The position numbers and the translations under genes were made by a program. Shown piece by piece: positions 1,424 to 54,309 of a stretch of DNA of 64,000 nucleotides. The stretch comes from Eledone cirrhosa (Eukaryota): assembly GCA_964016885.1 (NCBI GenBank), contig OZ024747.1, positions 24,676,001 through 24,740,000 on the forward strand, read 5' to 3'. The notes under the pieces were generated by a model, which had not been told where the DNA came from, did not search any database, and saw nothing but the letters and a program-made list of their open reading frames with translations. Numbering within the stretch: the first letter of the stretch is position 1; each line of letters opens with the position of its first letter.

Positions 1424-4190
<2,767 letters not shown>

Positions 4191-4191
4191 C

Positions 4192-4441
4192 TCAACATCA
4201 CACCAGGACACGTCAAAACAGAAACTGACCACACAAAATTCAAGAGTCTTTGGACAAATTCCTCCAAGTAATCCCGGACAAACCACCCACACCCGGATAT
4301 GTCTCCGCAAACAGTAATTCTCTTCTCGAATGGGCCATGGTGCCCAAATCCTGAATTGAAAGACTTCGCCAGGTGGTGCTATTAAGTTAGACATGCCCTG
4401 GGCCAATACTGGCCAAAACATTTCAAAGTTATTCAAAGTTA
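4192..4441 (+). mobile_element. 5'-truncated 3' end of a CR1/L2-type LINE embedded in (TA)n
   Basis: Near-identical to 32795-33045, which follows an RT C-terminal region; ends in TTCAAAGTTATTCAAAGTT tail. Confidence 0.8.
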
Positions 4442-5082
<641 letters not shown>

Positions 5083-7845
5083 GAATATAGACATAGAATA
5101 TTCGAAAATATTCTGTATGTTTATAATAAACATTTTGAAGACCTAATCGCTATAGAATAGAATACGTCACGTATTACAATTAGATTCTCGATAAAAGAAA
5201 GGGAAGTAATCTACGCGTTTCATTCTCTGTTAGAATTCATCAGGACTACATATCCAGTGCTTTTATCGAGAATGACACAGCTAGAGACTTATAGAATACT
5301 TAGCTGTGTACAGGAACTGGTTTGAAAGAGCGGTGCCGGTCCGGCAGAAATTAGAAATTTGGAATAAATGCTCTGAAATAGCGATATATATGTGAATATA
5401 GACATAGAATATTCGAAAATATTCTGTATGTTTATAATAAACATTTGAAGACCTAATCGCTATAGAATAGAATACGTCCACGTATTACAATTAGATTCTC
5501 GATAAAGAAAGGGAAGTAATCTACGCGTTTCATTCTTGTTAGAATTCATCAGGACTACATATCCAGTGCTTTTATCGAGAATGACACAGCTAGAGACTTA
5601 TAGAATACTTAGCTGTGTACAGGAACTGGTTTGAAAGAGCGGTTGCCGGTCCGGCAGAAATTAGAAATTGGAATAAATGCTCTGAAATAGCGATATATAT
5701 GTGAATATAGACATAGAATATTCGAAAATATTCTGTATGTTTATAATAAACATTTGAAGACCTAATCGCTATAGAATAGAATACGTCACGTATTACAATT
5801 AGATTCTCGATAAAAGAAAGGGAAGTAATCTACGCGTTTCATTCTTGTTAGAATTCATCAGGACTACATATCCAGTGCTTTTATCGAGAATGACACAGCT
5901 AGAGACTTATAGAATACTTAGCTGTGTACAGGAACTGGTTTGAAAGAGCGGTTGCCGGTCCGGCAGAAATTAGAAATTGGAATAAATGCTCTGAAATAGC
6001 GATATATATGTGAATATAGACATAGAATATTCGAAAATATTCTGTATGTTTATAATAAACATTTTGAAGACCTAATCGCTATAGAATAGAATACGTCACG
6101 TATTACAATTAGATTCTCGATAAAAGAAAGGGAAGTAATCTACGCGTTTCATTCTTGTTAGAATTCATCAGGACTACATATCCAGTGCTTTTATCGAGAA
6201 TGACACAGCTAGAGACTTATAGAATACTTAGCTGTGTACAGGAACTGGTTTGAAAGAGCGGTTGCCGGTCCGGCAGAAATTAGAAATTGGAATAAATGCT
6301 CTGAAATAGCGATATATATGTGAATATAGACATAGAATATTCGAAAATATTCTGTATGTTTATAATAAACATTTTGAAGACCTAATCGCTATAGAATAGA
6401 ATACGTCACGTATTACAATTAGATTCTCGATAAAAGAAAGGGAAGTAATCTACGCGTTTCATTCTTGTTAGAATTCATCAGGACTACATATCCAGTGCTT
6501 TTATCGAGAATGACACAGCTAGAGACTTATAGAATACTTAGCTGTGTACAGGAACTGGTTTGAAAGAGCGGTTGCCGGTCCGGCAGAAATTAGAAATTGG
6601 AAGAAATGCTCTGAAATAGCGATATATATGTGAATATAGACATAGAATATTCGAAAATATTCTGTATGTTTATAATAAACATTTTGAAGACCTAATCGCT
6701 ATAGAATAGAATACGTCACGTATTACAATTAGATTCTCGATAAAAGAAAGGGAAGTAATCTACGCGTTTCATTCTTGTTAGAATTCATCAGGACTACATA
6801 TCCAGTGCTTTTATCGAGAATGACACAGCTAGAGACTTATAGAATACTTAGCTGTGTACAGGAACTGGTTTGAAAGAGCGGTTGCCGGTCCGGCAGAAAT
6901 TAGAAATTGGAATAAATGCTCTGAAATAGCGATATATATGTGAATATAGACATAGAATATTCGAAAATATTCTGTATGTTTATAATAAACATTTTGAAGA
7001 CCTAATCGCTATAGAATAGAATACGTCACGTATTACAATTAGATTCTCGATAAAAGAAAGGGAAGTAATCTACGCGTTTCATTCTTGTTAGAATTCATCA
7101 GGACTACATATCCAGTGCTTTTATCGAGAATGACACAGCTAGAGACTTATAGAATACTTAGCTGTGTACAGGAACTGGTTTGAAAGAGCGGTTGCCGGTC
7201 CGGCAGAAATTAGAAATTGGAATAAATGCTCTGAAATAGCGATATATATGTGAATATAGACATAGAATATTCGAAAATATCTGTATGTTTATAATAAACA
7301 TTTTGAAGACCTAATCGCTATAGAATAGAATACGTCACGTATTACAATTAGATTCTCGATAAAAGAAAGGGAAGTAATCTACGCGTTTCATTCTTGTTAG
7401 AATTCATCAGGACTACATATCCAGTGCTTTTATCGAGAATGACACAGCTAGAGACTTATAGAATACTTAGCTGTGTACAGGAACTGGTTTGAAAGAGCGG
7501 TTGCGGTCCGGCAGAAATTAGAAATTGGAATAAATGCTCTGAAATAGCGATATATATGTGAATATAGACATAGAATATTCGAAAATATTCTGTATGTTTA
7601 TAATAAAACATTTTGAAGACCTAATCGCTATAGAATAGAATACGTCACGTATTACAATTAGATTCTCGATAAAAGAAAGGGAAGTAATCTACGCGTTTCA
7701 TTCTTGTTAGAATTCATCAGGACTACATATCCAGTGCTTTTATCGAGAATGACACAGCTAGAGACTTATAGAATACTTAGCTGTGTACAGGAACTGGTTT
7801 GAAAGAGCGGTTGCCGGTCCGGCAGAAATTAGAAATTGGAATTGG
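5083..7845 (-). repeat. Left arm of 310-bp hammerhead-containing tandem array, about 9 units (ribozyme on minus strand)
   Basis: GAATATAGACATAG unit starts at 5083, 5394, 5703, 6012, 6322, 6632, 6942, 7252, 7560; units nearly identical. Confidence 0.97.
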
Positions 7846-10008
7846 AATTTCTGCCGGACCGGCAACCGCTCTTTCAAACCAGTTCCTGTACACAGCTAAG
7901 TATTCTATAAGTCTCTAGCTGTGTCATTCTCGATAAAAGCACTGGATATGTAGTCCTGATGAATTCTAACAAGAATGAAACGCGTAGATTACTTCCCTTT
8001 CTTTTATCGAGAATCTAATTGTAATACGTAACGTATTCTATTCTATAGCGATTAGGTCTTCAAAATGTTTATTATAAACATACAGAATATTTTCGAATAT
8101 TCTATGTCTATATTCACATATATATCGCTATTTCAGAGCATTTATTCCAATTTCTAATTTCTGCCGGACCGGCAACCGCTCTTTCAAACCAGTTCCTGTA
8201 CACAGCTAAGTATTCTATAAGTCTCTAGCTGTGTCATTCTCGATAAAAGCACTGGATATGTAGTCCTGATGAATTCTAACAAGAATGAAACGCGTAGATT
8301 ACTTCCCTTTCTTTTATCGAGAATCTAATTGTAATACGTGACGTATTCTATTCTATAGCGATTAGGTCTTCAAAATGTTTATTATAAACATACAGAATAT
8401 TTTCGAATATTCTATGTCTATATTCACATATATATCGCTATTTCAGAGCATTTATTCCAATTTCTAATTTCTGCCGGACCGGCAACCGCTCTTTCAAACC
8501 AGTTCCTGTACACAGCTAAGTATTCTATAAGTCTCTAGCTGTGTCATTCTCGATAAAAGCACTGGATATGTTAGTCCTGATGAATTCTAACAAGAATGAA
8601 ACGCGTAGATTACTTCCCTTTCTTTTATCGAGAATCTAATTGTAATACGTGACGTATTCTATTCTATAGCGATTAGGTCTTCAAAATGTTTATTATAAAC
8701 ATACAGAATATTTTCGAATATTCTATGTCTATATTCACATATATATCGCTATTTCAGAGCATTTATTCCAATTTCTAATTTCTGCCGGACCGGCAACCGC
8801 TCTTTCAAACCAGTTCCTGTACACAGCTAAGTATTCTATAAGTCTCTAGCTGTGTCATTCTCGATAAAAGCACTGGATATGTAGTCCTGATGAATTCTAA
8901 CAAGAATGAAACGCGTAGATTACTTCCCTTTCTTTTATCGAGAATCTAATTGTAATACGTGACGTATTCTATTCTATAGCGATTAGGTCTTCAAAATGTT
9001 TTATTATAAACATACAGAATATTTTCGAATATTCTATGTCTATATTCACATATATATCGCTATTTCAGAGCATTTATTCCATTTCTAATTTCTGCCGGAC
9101 CGGCAACCGCTCTTTCAAACCAGTTCCTGTACACAGCTAAGTATTCTATAAGTCTCTAGCTGTGTCATTCTCGATAAAAGCACTGGATATGTAGTCTGAT
9201 GAATTCTAACAAGAATGAAACGCGTAGATTACTTCCCTTTCTTTTATCGAGAATCTAATTGTAATACGTGACGTATTCTATTCTATAGCGATTAGGTCTT
9301 CAAAATGTTTATTATAAACATACAGAATATTTTCGAATATTCTATGTCTATATTCACATATATATCGCTATTTCAGAGCATTTATTCCAATTTCTAATTT
9401 CTGCCGGACCGGCAACCGCTCTTTCAAACCAGTTCCTGTACACAGCTAAGTATTCTATAAGTCTCTAGCTGTGTCATTCTCGATAAAAGCACTGGATATG
9501 TAGTCCTGATGAATTCTAACAAGAATGAAACGCGTAGATTACTTCCCTTTCTTTTATCGAGAATCTAATTGTAATACGTGACGTATTCTATTCTATAGCG
9601 ATTAGGTCTTCAAAATGTTTATTATAAACATACAGAATATTTTCGAATATTCTATGTCTATATTCACATATATATCGCTATTTCAGAGCATTTATTCCAA
9701 TTTCTAATTTCTGCCGGACCGGCAACGCTCTTTCAAACCAGTTCCTGTACACAGCTAAGTATTCTATAAGTCTCTAGCTGTGTCATTCTCGATAAAAGCA
9801 CTGGATATGTAGTCCTGATGAATTCTAACAAGAATGAAACGCGTAGATTACTTCCCTTTCTTTTATCGAGAATCTAATTGTAATACGTGACGTATTCTAT
9901 TCTATAGCGATTAGGTCTTCAAAATGTTTATTATAAACATACAGAATATTTTCGAATATTCTATGTCTATATTCACATATATATCGCTATTTCAGAGCAT
10001 TTATTCCA

Positions 10009-10014
<6 letters not shown>
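7846..10014 (+). repeat. Right, inverted arm of the same 310-bp array, 7 units (ribozyme on plus strand)
   Basis: Reverse complement of left arm; CTGCCGGACC recurs at 7851, 8161, 8471, 8782, 9092, 9401, 9711. Confidence 0.97.
7950..7992 (+). ncRNA. Type I hammerhead ribozyme (representative copy; one per 310-bp unit)
   Basis: GUAGUC-CUGAUGA-AUUCU(AACA)AGAAU-GAAA-CGCG-UA/GAUUAC: intact core, stem I 6 bp with one G-U, stem II 5 bp, palindromic stem III ACGCGU; distal stem 7926-7939 pairs with 8001-8014. Confidence 0.9.
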
Positions 10015-10052
<38 letters not shown>

Positions 10053-10077
10053 TATATTTATTAAAATAACAGATTAA

Positions 10078-10128
10078 AGTTTAAGCAAAGAATCGCTGCT
10101 TTCACCCTTAACGGGATCTTCTGAAACT
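10078..10128 (-). ncRNA. Variant hammerhead ribozyme in the Penelope 3' end
   Basis: AGUUU-CAGAAGA-UCCC(GUUAA)GGGU-GAAA-GCA(GCGAUUCUU)UGC-UU/AAACU; all three stems form, core has U4 to A change. Confidence 0.7.
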
Positions 10129-11047
10129 AACAAAGTCAATCTGTAAACGCAGAACTGGATATTTCAAAAAAACGTTGCAACCGGAGGAAGACAGGAAGAC
10201 GATAACTTTGGTTCGTGGTAACGTTCGCTGGCAAAGAACGGGAAAAAACGAATAATACGTCATTAATAGGAGCGGTGAAAAACAATTACGCGCAAAGACA
10301 GAACCACGTTTATGGTATAAAAGAGTTCGTAGACTAATGTTCTCTTAGGTGGTGCATAGAGACGTTCTCTGGCAATGAACGAAAAAACGAAGATAATAAG
10401 TCATATGTGGAGCGTGGAGAACAATAGCACGCAAAGACAAAACACGTAAATGGTATAGCAGAAATCGTAGACTAAAATTCTAACTAGGAGACCAAATGAA
10501 TCTCCGCTACAGAGTTAAGAACAAAGTAAATAAATACAATACAGAAGTAATAGAAACAAATAAATACATACACGCAAACAGATACGTACATACACAAAAC
10601 CTCACCATGGGTATACAAAACCACGCACATATAAATATGTGTGTGTGTATGCTTGTGTACAAATGAATAAATAATTATATAAACGTATATAAGTAAATAA
10701 ATACGTATATAACAAGCGCACACGCATACCTACATATAAATACACGAATGTTCGGAGACGTAAGTCAACTAAAACAAGAAGTACACATATACACACACCC
10801 ACCATACGTTACGAACCTGCACACTCACGCGGACGCAAAACTCCCGTATACACATAGCCAAACCCTAAATACCAAAATATGTAAAAATTATACGCTATAA
10901 ACAGTCAAATATACGTACGAGAAGGTATACATACCTTCACAAAACATACGGGTAATATATACTTACCTATGCAAATAAGTAAAGGAATAAACAAAACATA
11001 TACTTAGCTCCCACATCAAGACGTAAAATATCCACGTATAGATCGTG

Positions 11048-12708
11048 CTATCCGTTAGGGTATAACGTGGGGCTGTAATACAGGAAAGTTTTGTGCAATT
11101 TATGTTTACAAGCCGAATTGCCTCAGATTTTTTGTTTAAAATGTGGTCTGTAGCGTAGAGTATTTCCAGGGCCTCAGCGGCGCAGAGGTCACATGGTCTT
11201 TTATTTCCGTTATACGATCTAGCCCTAGCTAGGATCTCCCAGTGTAACTTATATTGGGTGTGGTTGTCTTTTAGACTCCAGATATAAGCTGAAAGTTGAC
11301 GTCATATTCCTTCTTAGAGGGTAACGAAAAAATGGGTATGCATGTAAAGACGCTGCTTGAAACTATTGACGGTTAACCCTATGTAGGCCCTACGGGACGT
11401 GGGTGTTACAACCTTACATTTGTAGACAATGTTACTAGAGAGGCATTTCCTGGATAGGGGGCAATCAGCCGATTCCTACAATTACAGTTAGTACTAACTA
11501 CAGGGTTGCACGTGTTCCTATGGCTAGGTAGTTTAGCTAAATTTGAAGCTGTGATGTTATGTGCACGGTTAGGAGTTGTAGAGTAAGAAATTTTAATAGT
11601 ATTTCTATTAAAAATTTTACTATATTTATGTGTAGGGGGAAAATGCTTCGAAATAAGGGAAAGAAAGATCTTAGCTAATGGTGTGGCCACCTCCATATTA
11701 TATGGTGGGTTAAACCAACAAATGCGACGGGATCTATTTCTTCTAGGTCTATTTTCGTACTCTGTATATGCTACCTTATCGACAAATCCACTTCGAGCAA
11801 GAGCTTCATCGTAATAAGTGGAATGGTGGTTGAAAATGCGCTCGTTGGTGGAAAGACGCGAAAGCCTCAACGAAACGTTTCTTACCAGGTTCTTGGTTAT
11901 GCTGGCAGGATGGTTGGAATGCTTACTTATGTAATTAAGCGTATCATTCGGCTTAATATACGGGTAATACAACCATTCAATAAATTGAGGGTAACGTCGA
12001 GGTAATTAACGACCGAGAGATTGGCCTCAACCTGTATAGAGAGGTTGAAGCCTTTAAAGAAGGCTGTGAGTTCTTTTCTGAACCTGTCGCAAGCACGAGG
12101 TCCGCACTTAGTCATGGTCAAAAGACCATCGTCACGGTACAAACCACCGCCCGCGTTGGGGAATTCGTCCTTGATAGAGAAAAGAAGGAAAAGGCCAATA
12201 AGATCAGTAACCTCCGCAGAGTCACTGGCGCCATACTCACGTCGAATGGGGTACTATTGGATTTTTTAATCCAAATAGAGTCGTCGAAATTAATCACCGA
12301 CTTTCGGGCATTAAGGATGACATCAACTTCAAAATCCTTAACCACTGTGAGTGTTTTACCGAAATTGATAGCTCTAAGGAGAAAGTGGTAAAGTGATGGA
12401 GGAGTAGTAATTGTTGATGTCGAATTGGATAAAACGGCAATGTTCCTTGTTACATATGCCGTTGAACCAATCAATCACCGCGAAGAGTTGTTCCACACTG
12501 CAAGAGGGCCCAAACTTCTAATTTCAGGTATAATTCTATCAAGAATCGTTTTACTAAGTCTACCTAAATCGGACTTCGTAGGGTTAATAAGCCGAATTGT
12601 TCGGAAAATTGGATTTGTGATCCTTCAGGGTAAAGTGGGGAGAGATAGGGTCCAGAGGTTCGGCTCCGGTCCAGGATGTTGAGATCAGATGTGATTTTAA
12701 ACCCGAGC
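11048..12708 (-). pseudogene. Frameshifted Penelope-type reverse transcriptase + GIY-YIG endonuclease
   Basis: Fragments read [92 protein letters not shown]. Confidence 0.9.
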
Positions 12709-16010
<3,302 letters not shown>

Positions 16011-16093
16011 CGTTATTCCGGGTTGAATCGGAGGTAACCACAGTAAGTAAGGTACTCAATACATAGCAGAGTATAACAGTTTTAATATAGATG

Positions 16094-16144
16094 AGATTCT
16101 ACAGGACTAGAACTGTTTCATTCATTAGAAATCATCAGGAATCT
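16094..16144 (-). ncRNA. Hammerhead ribozyme (left arm copy)
   Basis: AGAUUC-CUGAUGA-UUUC(UAAU)GAAU-GAAA-CAG(UUCUAGUC)CUG-UA/GAAUCU. Confidence 0.85.
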
Positions 16145-16881
16145 GGGTATCAAAAAATAAATATGGTATTTATAGGTCTCTACAAGTGGTAGGAGAGGGT
16201 GGGGAGTGGGATGGGTGCAGGTCATTGGTTGATAGAGAAGGGAATTCATTAAAAGCTAATTCTACAAAGCTATAGTTAATTTATATTTATTTATGTTTTT
16301 AGAGTAACAAAGGCAGACAGAATTCTATAAACAGGTTCTGGATGGCATACCCATTCCTTGTCAATAAGTTTCTCTTAAGCTAGCAGATGTCTATAAAATC
16401 AGTGGGGGGTCATTCATGCTCGATAGAATTAAAGAAAAGGGAGATTCTTTAAAAGCTAAAGTCATTAAGGTTCTGCTAAGTGACAAAGGTCTAGGGAATT
16501 CTGCAGACAGATTCAAAATACTGAGTGCATATCTTACTATTATCTTCGAACTTCTCTTAAACTAATCAACAATATGCCAAATCAACAGACACATTCACAA
16601 AAAAACAAAAAAACCCCAAAAAAACAAAAAAACAGAAAAACAAAAAAAACCACACCTAAAGAACAAAAAAACACACATACTCACTCACACACTTACGCGC
16701 AACCATAAACACACACATAAACACATATACACACATAAAAACACACACATATATATAAAAAAAATATATAAATATATACAAATATATATTCATGTACACA
16801 CACATACATACACACATACATACATACATAAAATACATATACACATATACATACGCACACATATATAATATATATATATAT

Positions 16882-16930
<49 letters not shown>

Positions 16931-17043
16931 TATATACACACATATATATATACACACATACACACACACACACACATACATACATATATATATATACATA
17001 TATATATATATACATACATATATATACAAATATATATATATAT

Positions 17044-17092
<49 letters not shown>

Positions 17093-17223
17093 GACACAGA
17101 TACACACACACATATACACATACATACATATGTATACTCGTGTTTGTATGTATGCGTGTGTGTGTATTTATTTGTGTATATATGTCGTGTATGTGTGTAT
17201 GAATGTGTATATGTGTGTGTATC

Positions 17224-17264
<41 letters not shown>

Positions 17265-17299
17265 ATATATATATATATATATTTGTATATATATGTATG

Positions 17300-17330
<31 letters not shown>

Positions 17331-17383
17331 GTATGTATGTGTGTGTGTGTGTATGTGTGTATATATATATGTGTGTATATATA

Positions 17384-17428
<45 letters not shown>

Positions 17429-18175
17429 ATATATATATATATATATTATATATGTGTGCGTATGTATATGTGTATATGTATTTTATATATGTATGTATGT
17501 ATGTATGTGTGTATGTATGTGTGTGTACATGAATATATATTTGTATATATTTATATATTTTTTTTATATATATGTGTGTGTTTTTATGTGTGTATATGTG
17601 TTTATGTGTGTGTTTATGGTTGCGCGTAAGTGTGTGAGTGAGTATGTGTGTTTTTTTGTTCTTTAGGTGTGGTTTTTTTTGTTTTTCTGTTTTTTTGTTT
17701 TTTGGGGTTTTTTTGTTTTTTTGTGAATGTGTCTGTTGATTTGGCATATTGTTGATTAGTTTAAGAGAAGTTCGAAGATAATAGTAAGATATGCACTCAG
17801 TATTTTGAATCTGTCTGCAGAATTCCCTAGACCTTTGTCACTTAGCAGAACCTTAATGACTTTAGCTTTTAAAGAATCTCCCTTTTCTTTAATTCTATCG
17901 AGCATGAATGACCCCCCACTGATTTTATAGACATCTGCTAGCTTAAGAGAAACTTATTGACAAGGAATGGTATGCCATCCGGAACCTGTTTATAGAATTC
18001 TGTCTGCCTTTGTTACTCTAAAAACATAAATAAATATAAATTAACTATAGCTTTGTAGAATTAGCTTTTAATGAATTCCCTTCTCTATCAACCAATGACC
18101 TGCACCCATCCCACTCCCCACCCTCTCCTACCACTTGTAGAGACCTATAAATACCATATTTATTTTTTGATACCC

Positions 18176-18226
18176 AGATTCCTGATGATTTCTAATGAAT
18201 GAAACAGTTCTAGTCCTGTAGAATCT
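18176..18226 (+). ncRNA. Hammerhead ribozyme (right arm copy)
   Basis: Same motif as 16094-16144 on the opposite strand. Confidence 0.85.
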
Positions 18227-18242
18227 CATCTATATTAAAACT

Positions 18243-24984
<6,742 letters not shown>

Positions 24985-25146
24985 TGTTATACTTTGGGAG
25001 GGTCATGTTGCCAATAAGAAACACACGCACCAGTTGCTTTCACTTCAATTAATTTAATATATATTTATAAATTTACAAATTTATAAATTTATAAATTTCT
25101 GGTTGGTTGGTTGGTTCCACAACCAGATAGTTGTTTATATATATAT

Positions 25147-25191
25147 AGTCATAGTTCTTTCGTCACACACTCTGTGACCTCTTCAGTGACT
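25147..25191 (-). ncRNA. Hammerhead ribozyme (left arm)
   Basis: Mirror of 25296-25340. Confidence 0.75.
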
Positions 25192-25295
25192 GGGGATTTC
25201 TTCTTCGTTTCTGTGCCTTTCCTTTCTTCTATCCTACGCCAAAATGGCGTAGGATAGAAGAAAGGAAAGGCACAGAAACGAAGAAAGAAATCCCC

Positions 25296-25340
25296 AGTCA
25301 CTGAAGAGGTCACAGAGTGTGTGACGAAAGAACTATGACT
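25296..25340 (+). ncRNA. Hammerhead ribozyme (right arm)
   Basis: AGUCA-CUGAAGA-G-GUCAC(AGAGUGU)GUGAC-GAAA-GAAC-UA/UGACU; minimal stem III. Confidence 0.75.
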
Positions 25341-25563
25341 ATATATATATAAACAACTATCTGGTTGGTGGAACCAACCAACCAACCAGAAATTTATAAA
25401 TTTATAAATTTGTAAATTTATAAATATATATTAAATTAATTGAAGTGAAAGCAACTGGTGCGTGTGTTTCTTATTGGCAACATGACCCTCCCAAAGTATA
25501 ACAATATCGGTTTCAACACACGATTTCAGATAAAGAATCTTGCTAAACAAATTCAGAAACGAC

Positions 25564-29150
<3,587 letters not shown>

Positions 29151-29330
29151 ATCATCATCATCATCAACGTTTAACGTCCGTGTTCCACGCTTGCATGGGT
29201 TTGGACGGGGGTAGTCCCACTTGAGGCAAGAGTGATTGTCTTGCTCGCATAGGACTGTCTGGCAGGTTTTCTACAGTTGGATGCCCTTCCTAACACCAAC
29301 CACATTTACAGTGTGTGTCTGGGAGGTTTT
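29151..29330 (-). mobile_element. SINE-like repeat with (ATG)n tail
   Basis: CATCATCAT-CGTTTAACGTCC..GCATGGGTTGGAC..GGATGCCCTTCCTAAC; related copies near 54541, 54750-54930, 58510-58580, 63180-63420. Confidence 0.7.
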
Positions 29331-50310: not shown

Positions 50311-50931
50311 CATACATATATATGATCAATTATACATATATATATATATATGTGTGTGTTGTGTGAGTGAATGTGCCTGTGTGTCTGTATGCATACATAC
50401 ATACACACACACACATGAATAACCATATACAGTATAAATGTGTTGTCTACTAATATTTTCCTTTCTAGTTTTGCGCTGTGTTGTGGTATGTAATTTAGTG
50501 GTGCTGCAGTTGTTCTTTATTATAAGTACATTGTTAGTCTATGAGAGAGTATCGTACTTATATGACCAATATAACAGTTGGAGTCATGAAGTTTGTGACT
50601 TTCACATTTGCAATCGGATTTATAAATCATAATTCGTAGCTTTTTTCTTGGGTCTACAACCTCTTTATTGCCAAATCACAAGCAAGTAGACTCTACATGC
50701 TTGTGTTTTGACAATAAAGAGTATTTTTACTTCAGACTTTGTAGCATATTATCAATATTAATTTGTGATTTGATGTGATCCGTTATGTGTTACGTTTTAT
50801 AAGATTTTTTGATAATGTGCTCGTCTATTCTATAGCGAGGCAACGGAATATGATTCGTGCGGCTAATTGTTCTTGAAAATAAATACGGATATATGCCCAC
50901 TAAACGATGCCCACAGTACAGCGACTATTAT

Positions 50932-53622: not shown

Positions 53623-54309
53623 TTAATAAATGAAATATTAACATCAACATCTATGCCTCAGTGATTTTTCCATAACCCTTGACTATTTATTTATAAAAAT
53701 ATGTATATATATATATGCTACAACTTAAATTCATATCCATTATTATATAAATGGAATAGAATGAAACGAAATTTCATTTCTCACTCTTAGTACGGCACTT
53801 ACTTAAATGTAAGTATGTATGTATACGTACATACACATATGTATACAGACGTACAGTAGCATGTGTATATATATATATATATATAGGCACACATATATAT
53901 GCACGTATCAGTTTACCGAACATTTATTATAATGTTCGCTTTGTTCGTTTGTAAACAAACGAACAGCCTGATTTACGCCGTACAGTGTTCAGACAACCAC
54001 GTCACCTTTTTGTTCAACACTGACACAGGAACGATGTACTAGTTTCAAGCTTGTTAGCTATCGTCAGCACCGTATACCTTTCTGCCAGATGGTTGAATGT
54101 TCGAAAGTATATACTTTCCTTATGAAAATTAACGGCTGAGCAGCCTAATTTGCATATCGAGTGAGTTCAGTCGGCCAGGCGCACCGAAAACGATAAATAG
54201 AATACAATGAAACGAAATTTCATTTCTTACTCTTAGTACGGCACTTACTTAAATGTAAGTATGTATGTATACGTACATACATATATGTATACAGACGTAC
54301 AGTAGCATG

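Follow-up and report, generated by a model that had tools for sequence, protein, structure and literature searches.

Animal non-LTR retrozymes are described in PMC7229834 as tandem arrays of 170-400 nt monomers of low GC content, with one type I hammerhead per unit and without an ORF or LTR, present in thousands of copies alongside Penelope-like elements (PLEs). A stable self-paired fold has already been described for them (PMC7229834; 10.64898/2026.07.22.740005), and their return into DNA is called an open question in the latter report. The prior case for PLE involvement consists of co-occurrence and pLTR phylogeny. PLE insertions are reported to include an inverted 5'-truncated copy, to bear a tail of 30-40 bp at one of their ends and to favor (TA)n targets (PMC8557442, PMC3846280). 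In work with a purified PLE protein (PMC11167929), AT-rich DNA was cut and extended on both strands, and the PLE reverse transcriptase (RT) started at two adjacent internal RNA sites, the interval between them giving the tail.

Arrays of a 310-nt repeat in (TA)n

The window, by which we mean the whole 64,000-nt stretch of Eledone cirrhosa DNA analyzed here, contains two arrays of a 310-nt monomer (GC about 33%) in back-to-back orientation. The left arm (5073-7842) has 8.9 tandem monomers with the ribozyme motif on the minus strand, the right arm (7846-10015) has 7.0 on the plus strand, and the inner head-to-head junction carries a 3-nt insert (7843-7845). Taking the plus-strand unit at 7851-8160 as the reference monomer, with position 1 at 7851, the outer (3') end of the left arm is at monomer position 266-275 and that of the right arm at position 306; we refer to these as the early and late sites. 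The arms adjoin (TA)n directly and without an LTR, the left flank (1501-5072) being a (TA)n-rich target microsatellite and the right flank (10016-10061) a (TA)n one. Among the window's reading frames listed, none in the array is stop-free over at least 130 aa, so that the RT plus GIY-YIG ORF of an autonomous PLE is absent, and no match was found in the phage collection.

By every sequence-level criterion the 310-nt repeat would be classed as a non-LTR retrozyme. It shares monomer size, GC content, hammerhead, non-coding nature and predicted fold with those of Cervera & de la Peña 2020. It differs in that most loci are two-armed with a fixed tail, and circles and cleavage are demonstrated for the retrozymes of PMC7229834, whereas here they are predicted from sequence. 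The plant LTR retrozymes have a type III hammerhead within LTRs; the motif here is of type I and the units are in tandem. The newt and axolotl satellite hammerheads, as presented in PMC7229834 and PMC4209133, resemble the 310-nt repeat in the lengths of helix I (6 bp) and helix II (4 bp) and in a palindromic helix III of 1-2 bp that calls for a double hammerhead, whereas families related to the 310-nt repeat include palindromes of up to 16 nt and a U3-A8 core. The words 'inverted', 'microsatellite' and 'octopus' do not occur in the main text of PMC7229834, and the literature covered, which lies largely outside subscription papers and supplements that may draw them, yielded no account of this family or of two-armed tailed retrozyme insertions.

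Several other repeats are present in the window and at other loci. A flanking SINE motif and the microsatellite load are suggestive of an octopus. A degenerate, 5'-truncated PLE-like element (10062-12700, minus strand) shares its (TA)n tract with the right arm; it has RT and endonuclease remnants, a 139-bp tandem repeat in its 3' part and a possible decayed minimal hammerhead near 10100-10135, and lacks the conserved domain of the 310-nt repeat described below. A 16.4-kb tract rich in (TA)n (12709-29152) has several elements inserted in it, and within this expanse is a second back-to-back element of about 2.2 kb (16012-18245), with minimal hammerheads at 16138 (minus strand) and 18182 (plus strand); of its two arms just the left one has a tail, of about 70 nt. 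This element belongs to another family with the same geometry as the 310-nt arrays. Another repeat family, which has a hammerhead and two terminal hairpins, is present at 54030-54090 (minus strand), L241:2775-3202 and L263:1000-1300, in back-to-back orientation within (TA)n at L241, and L095:6690-7110 is another short hammerhead-bearing insertion in (TA)n, with inverted ends and an unrelated sequence.

A hammerhead pattern has 14,252 matches in the 3.0-Gb genome (control 0). Of the first 100 matches listed, 99 are from the window's family and are spread over 15 loci, from which we estimate that the family has roughly 2,000 loci. A conserved motif gives 6,712 genome matches with the window's family excluded (control 1). 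The fetched loci contain 91 distinct full units that fall into five clusters, with the relatives 65-68% identical to the window's family; a sixth, older family (F) was found beyond these.

The unit is also present in sequencing runs, with 20 holders listed in 17 studies; no RNA holders are listed, which is not evidence either way. In one run (X1) there are 806 pieces of the unit, and their summed depth, which reaches about 8e5, would be compatible with an origin in host DNA. Six runs with other organism labels (X4, X5, X8, X9, X13 and X15) each have one near-identical contig of 331-340 nt at a depth of 10-365. Contigs of the unit read alike for a circle and for a tandem array, and those with the six labels are probably carry-over, which we prefer to horizontal spread as their source; we do not use them as evidence for a circle or for such spread. 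A raw DNA run with the study and label of X9, not valid as a test, has 0 reads in 1,938 million letters.

Hammerhead motif and fold of the monomer

A type I hammerhead motif is located at 7944-7996 on the plus strand, assigned by sequence motif and by alignment to Rfam HH9. It consists of a 3-bp distal stem I (7944-7946/7994-7996) with a UAU bulge, a 6-bp stem I (7950-7955/7987-7992), the core CUGAUGA (7956-7962), a 4-bp stem II (7963-7966/7973-7976) with a 6-nt loop, GAAA (7977-7980), and a palindromic helix III, ACGCGU (7980-7985); cleavage is predicted after 7986, with the triplet GUA. There are no Rfam matches within the window at the gathering threshold, and the full HH9 model aligns weakly (E 0.0024; 23.4 bits against a gathering value of 52). 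The core pattern is found in 51 of 52 distinct family A units. Pair 10.1-11.1 in family A is A-U or a U-U mismatch rather than the usual G-C, and cleavage may therefore be poor. Families B, D, E and F have the core UUGAUAA, in which the C3-G8 pair is swapped to U3-A8, a natural and active hammerhead variant according to PMC3088659. All families have a palindromic or almost palindromic helix III, 6 to 16 nt in length and varying in sequence; the layout of the motif is the canonical metazoan geometry of PMC4209133, in which a palindromic helix III of 1-2 bp needs a double hammerhead. Because the geometry of the stem I bulge and 6-nt loop II is kept across families and aligns to HH9, the loop I-loop II tertiary contact suggested in the original prediction is plausible.

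The original prediction described the monomer as largely base-paired, with a branched fold under selection at the RNA level, and all five of the stems that it named are present where it placed them. The monomer has a folding energy of -71.4 kcal/mol (z -4.31 against dinucleotide shuffles, 0 of 100 as low), a second copy gives z -4.10 (100 dinucleotide shuffles), and folding in circular mode gives z -3.26 (1 of 100 as low), so the expectation that it would fold better than shuffles holds; related families are predicted to fold at z -5.2 to -7.8. Being largely base-paired is not a distinctive trait, the paired fraction of 0.58 being ordinary against 0.55±0.04 in shuffles. The antisense strand reaches z -3.81 in circular mode, such that the strand is not identifiable from energy, and two of nine control windows elsewhere in the 64-kb window reached z -4.6; for these three reasons energy alone is no proof of selection. 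One control window at z -4.6 (50501-50810) has two long imperfect hairpins. A perfect inverted match of at least 14 occurs in 17 of 2000 shuffles, a count that includes loop-less palindromes.

Covariation is stronger evidence for the fold than energy. In a MAFFT alignment of 24 of the 91 units, not fitted to structure, 85.2% of the cells of the originally predicted stems are paired, compared with 34.6-48.5% in slid controls, and there are 71 both-side changes, compared with 24.1 in shuffles (0 of 500 have as many). The number of pairs with a both-side change is 12 against 11.0 in shuffles, with 166 of 500 shuffles reaching it; this count does not exceed the shuffles because there are few independent lineages, all of the covariation counts resting on about 3-6.

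The long stem enclosing the ribozyme motif (7926-7939/8001-8014, plus strand, spanning 7926-8014) is 96% paired across families with both-side changes in 7 of 13 pairs, and has pair probabilities of 0.97-1.0 in 12 of 14 pairs in the circular ensemble. Within the motif, hammerhead stem II has compensatory changes in 4 of 4 pairs and the inner half of stem I in 3 of 3, with the outer half 62.5% paired. The UUCG hairpin (8084-8103) is 98% paired, with compensatory changes in 2 of 8 pairs and pair probabilities of 0.65-0.97. The small plus-strand hairpin at 7852-7864, originally drawn as UGCCGG-A-CCGGCA, is present, but since a 1-nt loop cannot close, it folds with 5 bp and a 3-nt loop; it is 89% paired across families with only one-side changes (pair probability of UGCCG 0.84-0.98). 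The AUAGCGAU helix (8045-8052/8124-8131; pair probability 0.49-0.61) is 93% paired but has zero compensation and weaker inner pairs. The ACACAGCUA/UAGCUGUGU hairpin (7890-7924, plus strand; stem 7890-7898/7916-7924) is present and stable in the window's family (0.9-1.0), but only 56.5% of it is paired across families, indicating that it is specific to the window's family. Its loop contains AUUCUAUAAG (monomer 51-60; 7901-7910), which is near-invariant in families A-E although the stem is not, and which could be a promoter or protein-binding motif. A TACG hairpin does not align across families (27%).

Two conserved helices are additional to those in the original prediction, an outer helix GCUCU/AGAGC (7868-7872/8135-8139, plus strand) that is near-invariant in families A-E and has both-side changes at its edges in family F, and AUGUUU/AAACAU (8065-8081). 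The latter is one of two hairpins, the other being at 8084-8103, in the most conserved structured domain of the monomer (8045-8151, plus strand), which has a closing helix at 8045-8050/8126-8131. For the 3' domain with family F included (17 stretches), both-side changes occur in 9 of 26 predicted pairs. Covariation in the related families thus supports a branched fold selected at the RNA level. We also considered two other readings of conserved sequence and rejected both: inspected by eye for tRNA-like or Pol III A/B-box features, the conserved domain has no T-arm pairing and these features are not kept across families, and a short ORF from an invariant AAATG has its frame shifted by a 1-nt indel between families.

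Ends, junctions and haplotypes

We compared 34 loci of the window's family: the window itself, 18 taken from the best DNA matches, a choice that favors near-identical copies, and an unbiased set made up of the first 15 loci along contig C1. Back-to-back arrays, mostly in (TA)n, are present at 28 of the 34 (12 of 15 among the unbiased loci), and the other six are one-way. Both outer ends are readable in 25 of the two-armed loci, the others having N gaps (two) or an incomplete sequence (one). In 24 of the 25, the end of one arm lies within monomer positions 257-278 (mode 266) and that of its partner within 292-306 (mode 301). These bins were defined after inspection of the ends, and the reading falls short by a few bases in three subfamily loci. 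If the two sites were chosen independently, half of the pairs would be mixed. The single exception ends at 85 and 302. Families C and B show the same pattern: in C, 15 of 30 loci are back-to-back, and of these 15, 11 pair an early with a late end and 0 have a same-class pair; in B, 22 of 28 are back-to-back, and of these 22, 17 are mixed and 1 is of the same class. The early site (about 8116) and late site (about 8151) are separated by a 35-nt tail, and both fall in parts of the most conserved structured domain that are mostly unpaired in the prediction, as monomer positions 263-265 and 291-310 are. The early site adjoins an AT run, and the flanks are of the (TA)n type at most of the ends listed, with L034, L080 and L095 as exceptions.

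The inner junctions are variable. Among 26 usable ones (L045 and L088 were left out), 19 overlap by 1-16 nt, two are blunt and five have inserts. Overlaps of at least 3 nt are present in 10 of the 26 (6.8% by chance) and of at least 5 nt in four (0.9% by chance), two junctions pass through the arms of the long stem, and all 52 inner ends are more than 10 nt away from the predicted cleavage site. The two arms are uniform in haplotype: variants are fixed in both arms at 16 loci, and among the scored variants none that is fixed in one arm is missing from its partner arm. There are 15 haplotype sets among the 31 loci with at least two scored copies, and the remaining differences are mostly singletons. 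One haplotype common to both arms of a locus is as expected from repeated copying of one circle.

In LINE-1 twin priming, two target ends prime on one RNA to generate an inverted junction with microhomology; L1 priming uses the poly(A) tail and a variable internal site of a linear RNA. The 310-nt arrays are alike in the inverted junction and differ in that both sites are fixed and internal and the arms are multimeric. The similarities to PLE insertions, as far as PMC11167929, PMC8557442 and PMC3846280 describe them, are a head-to-head inverted copy, a one-sided tail, AT-rich targets and two starts in a structured region, and by analogy the two-armed arrays closely fit the PLE insertion signature. 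The arrays are unlike PLEs in having no ORF, a canonical rather than minimal hammerhead and up to about 19 units per arm; unlike the PLE RT in PMC11167929, which initiates in the absence of target homology, they have an AT run next to the early site.

Uninterrupted PLE-type reading frames, about 850 aa long and accompanied by minimal hammerheads, are present in the genome. Three loci (L247, L248 and L250) have full-length frames of 844-850 aa and flanking repeats with minimal hammerheads, and on sequence grounds these PLEs are candidate enzyme suppliers. No similarity of the repeat to the pLTRs of the PLE loci examined was found, and the conserved domain is in none of 80 PLE-bearing loci (of >10,000 candidates) except as separate retrozyme insertions. 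Searches for an autonomous partner by protein and family, and in 20 long PLE loci with four profiles, returned only further retrozyme families.

Proposed route of insertion and its alternatives

We propose that the 310-nt monomer is the repeating unit of a mobile non-coding element, a non-LTR retrozyme whose circular RNA is copied into (TA)n by a PLE enzyme, and we regard this as probable. Given the hammerhead motif and the behavior of known retrozymes, transcripts of the arrays would be processed by neighboring hammerheads that pair through the palindromic helix III and excise monomers, and a host ligase would close the 310-nt circle. A PLE protein may then bind the conserved three-way domain and cut both strands of an AT-rich target, with both DNA ends priming reverse transcription at the RNA sites about 35 nt apart that the array ends mark. 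Each polymerase would circle the template several times to give two arms of one haplotype, and the two cDNA ends would be joined, consistent with the short microhomologies at many junctions and the long-stem arms at some. A more specific version, to which we give even odds, is a double-primed rolling-circle reverse transcription in which a PLE dimer sits on the conserved domain of the circle and primes from (TA)n at the two sites, 35 nt from each other, with both polymerases travelling round a single RNA molecule. On this view the domain, present in at least six families, would serve as a cis-acting docking element, the first to be defined for an animal retrozyme.

The main rival retains the same element and PLE enzyme but has the enzyme copy a source-array transcript that is long, multimeric and uncleaved. 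A weak 2-bp helix III may cleave slowly, the arms run unbroken across the predicted cleavage site, and homogeneous source arrays do exist (L033 and L036 have no variants). We nonetheless think it rather unlikely, since it has to accommodate 15 distinct haplotypes among 31 loci, each fixed over both arms, and a core and palindrome maintained through compensatory changes, and relatives in other animals are described as accumulating as circles (PMC7229834). Alternatively, a short PLE-derived inverted tailed insertion of one or two units could have undergone satellite-like expansion in place by unequal crossing-over, in which case the fold would be inherited and array length would say nothing about RNA copying. 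Expansion in place has been put forward for retrozymes in 10.64898/2026.07.22.740005 and fits the mostly short arrays of the older families C and B, yet one B array is about 9 kb. The longest arrays are in the youngest family, with 99-100% identity across contigs, and both arms are expanded from unrelated inner starts with one common haplotype, so we consider this explanation improbable.

The stems could also be selected in single-stranded DNA, as in a DNA rolling-circle or hairpin element, and the antisense strand does fold about equally well (z -3.81). G-U-type one-side changes are common, however, the hammerhead core with its U3-A8 swap is on one strand only, and the ends match a retroelement signature, all of which make this very improbable. 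Scattered single-base indels in the window's copies are typical of read errors and raise the question of whether the back-to-back layout is a long-read fold-back or assembly artefact. Against this, the two arms are unequal in length and have different inner breakpoints and flanks, the layout recurs with a fixed early/late rule at 28 loci spread over many contigs, and two loci (L034 and L095) appear to be bordered by direct target duplications; it is hard to credit that an artefact would produce these.

Copying of a circular RNA by a PLE enzyme is therefore the reading that we favor. The fold itself is expected for the class, and the interest of these arrays is the link between a conserved fold and a PLE-type two-site insertion rule: in a young family, a PLE insertion signature is tied at nucleotide resolution to a covarying RNA domain. 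Because there are unbroken PLE reading frames in the same genome, the mechanism is testable in vitro. Large inverted arrays of this kind could also yield double-stranded RNA or cruciforms.
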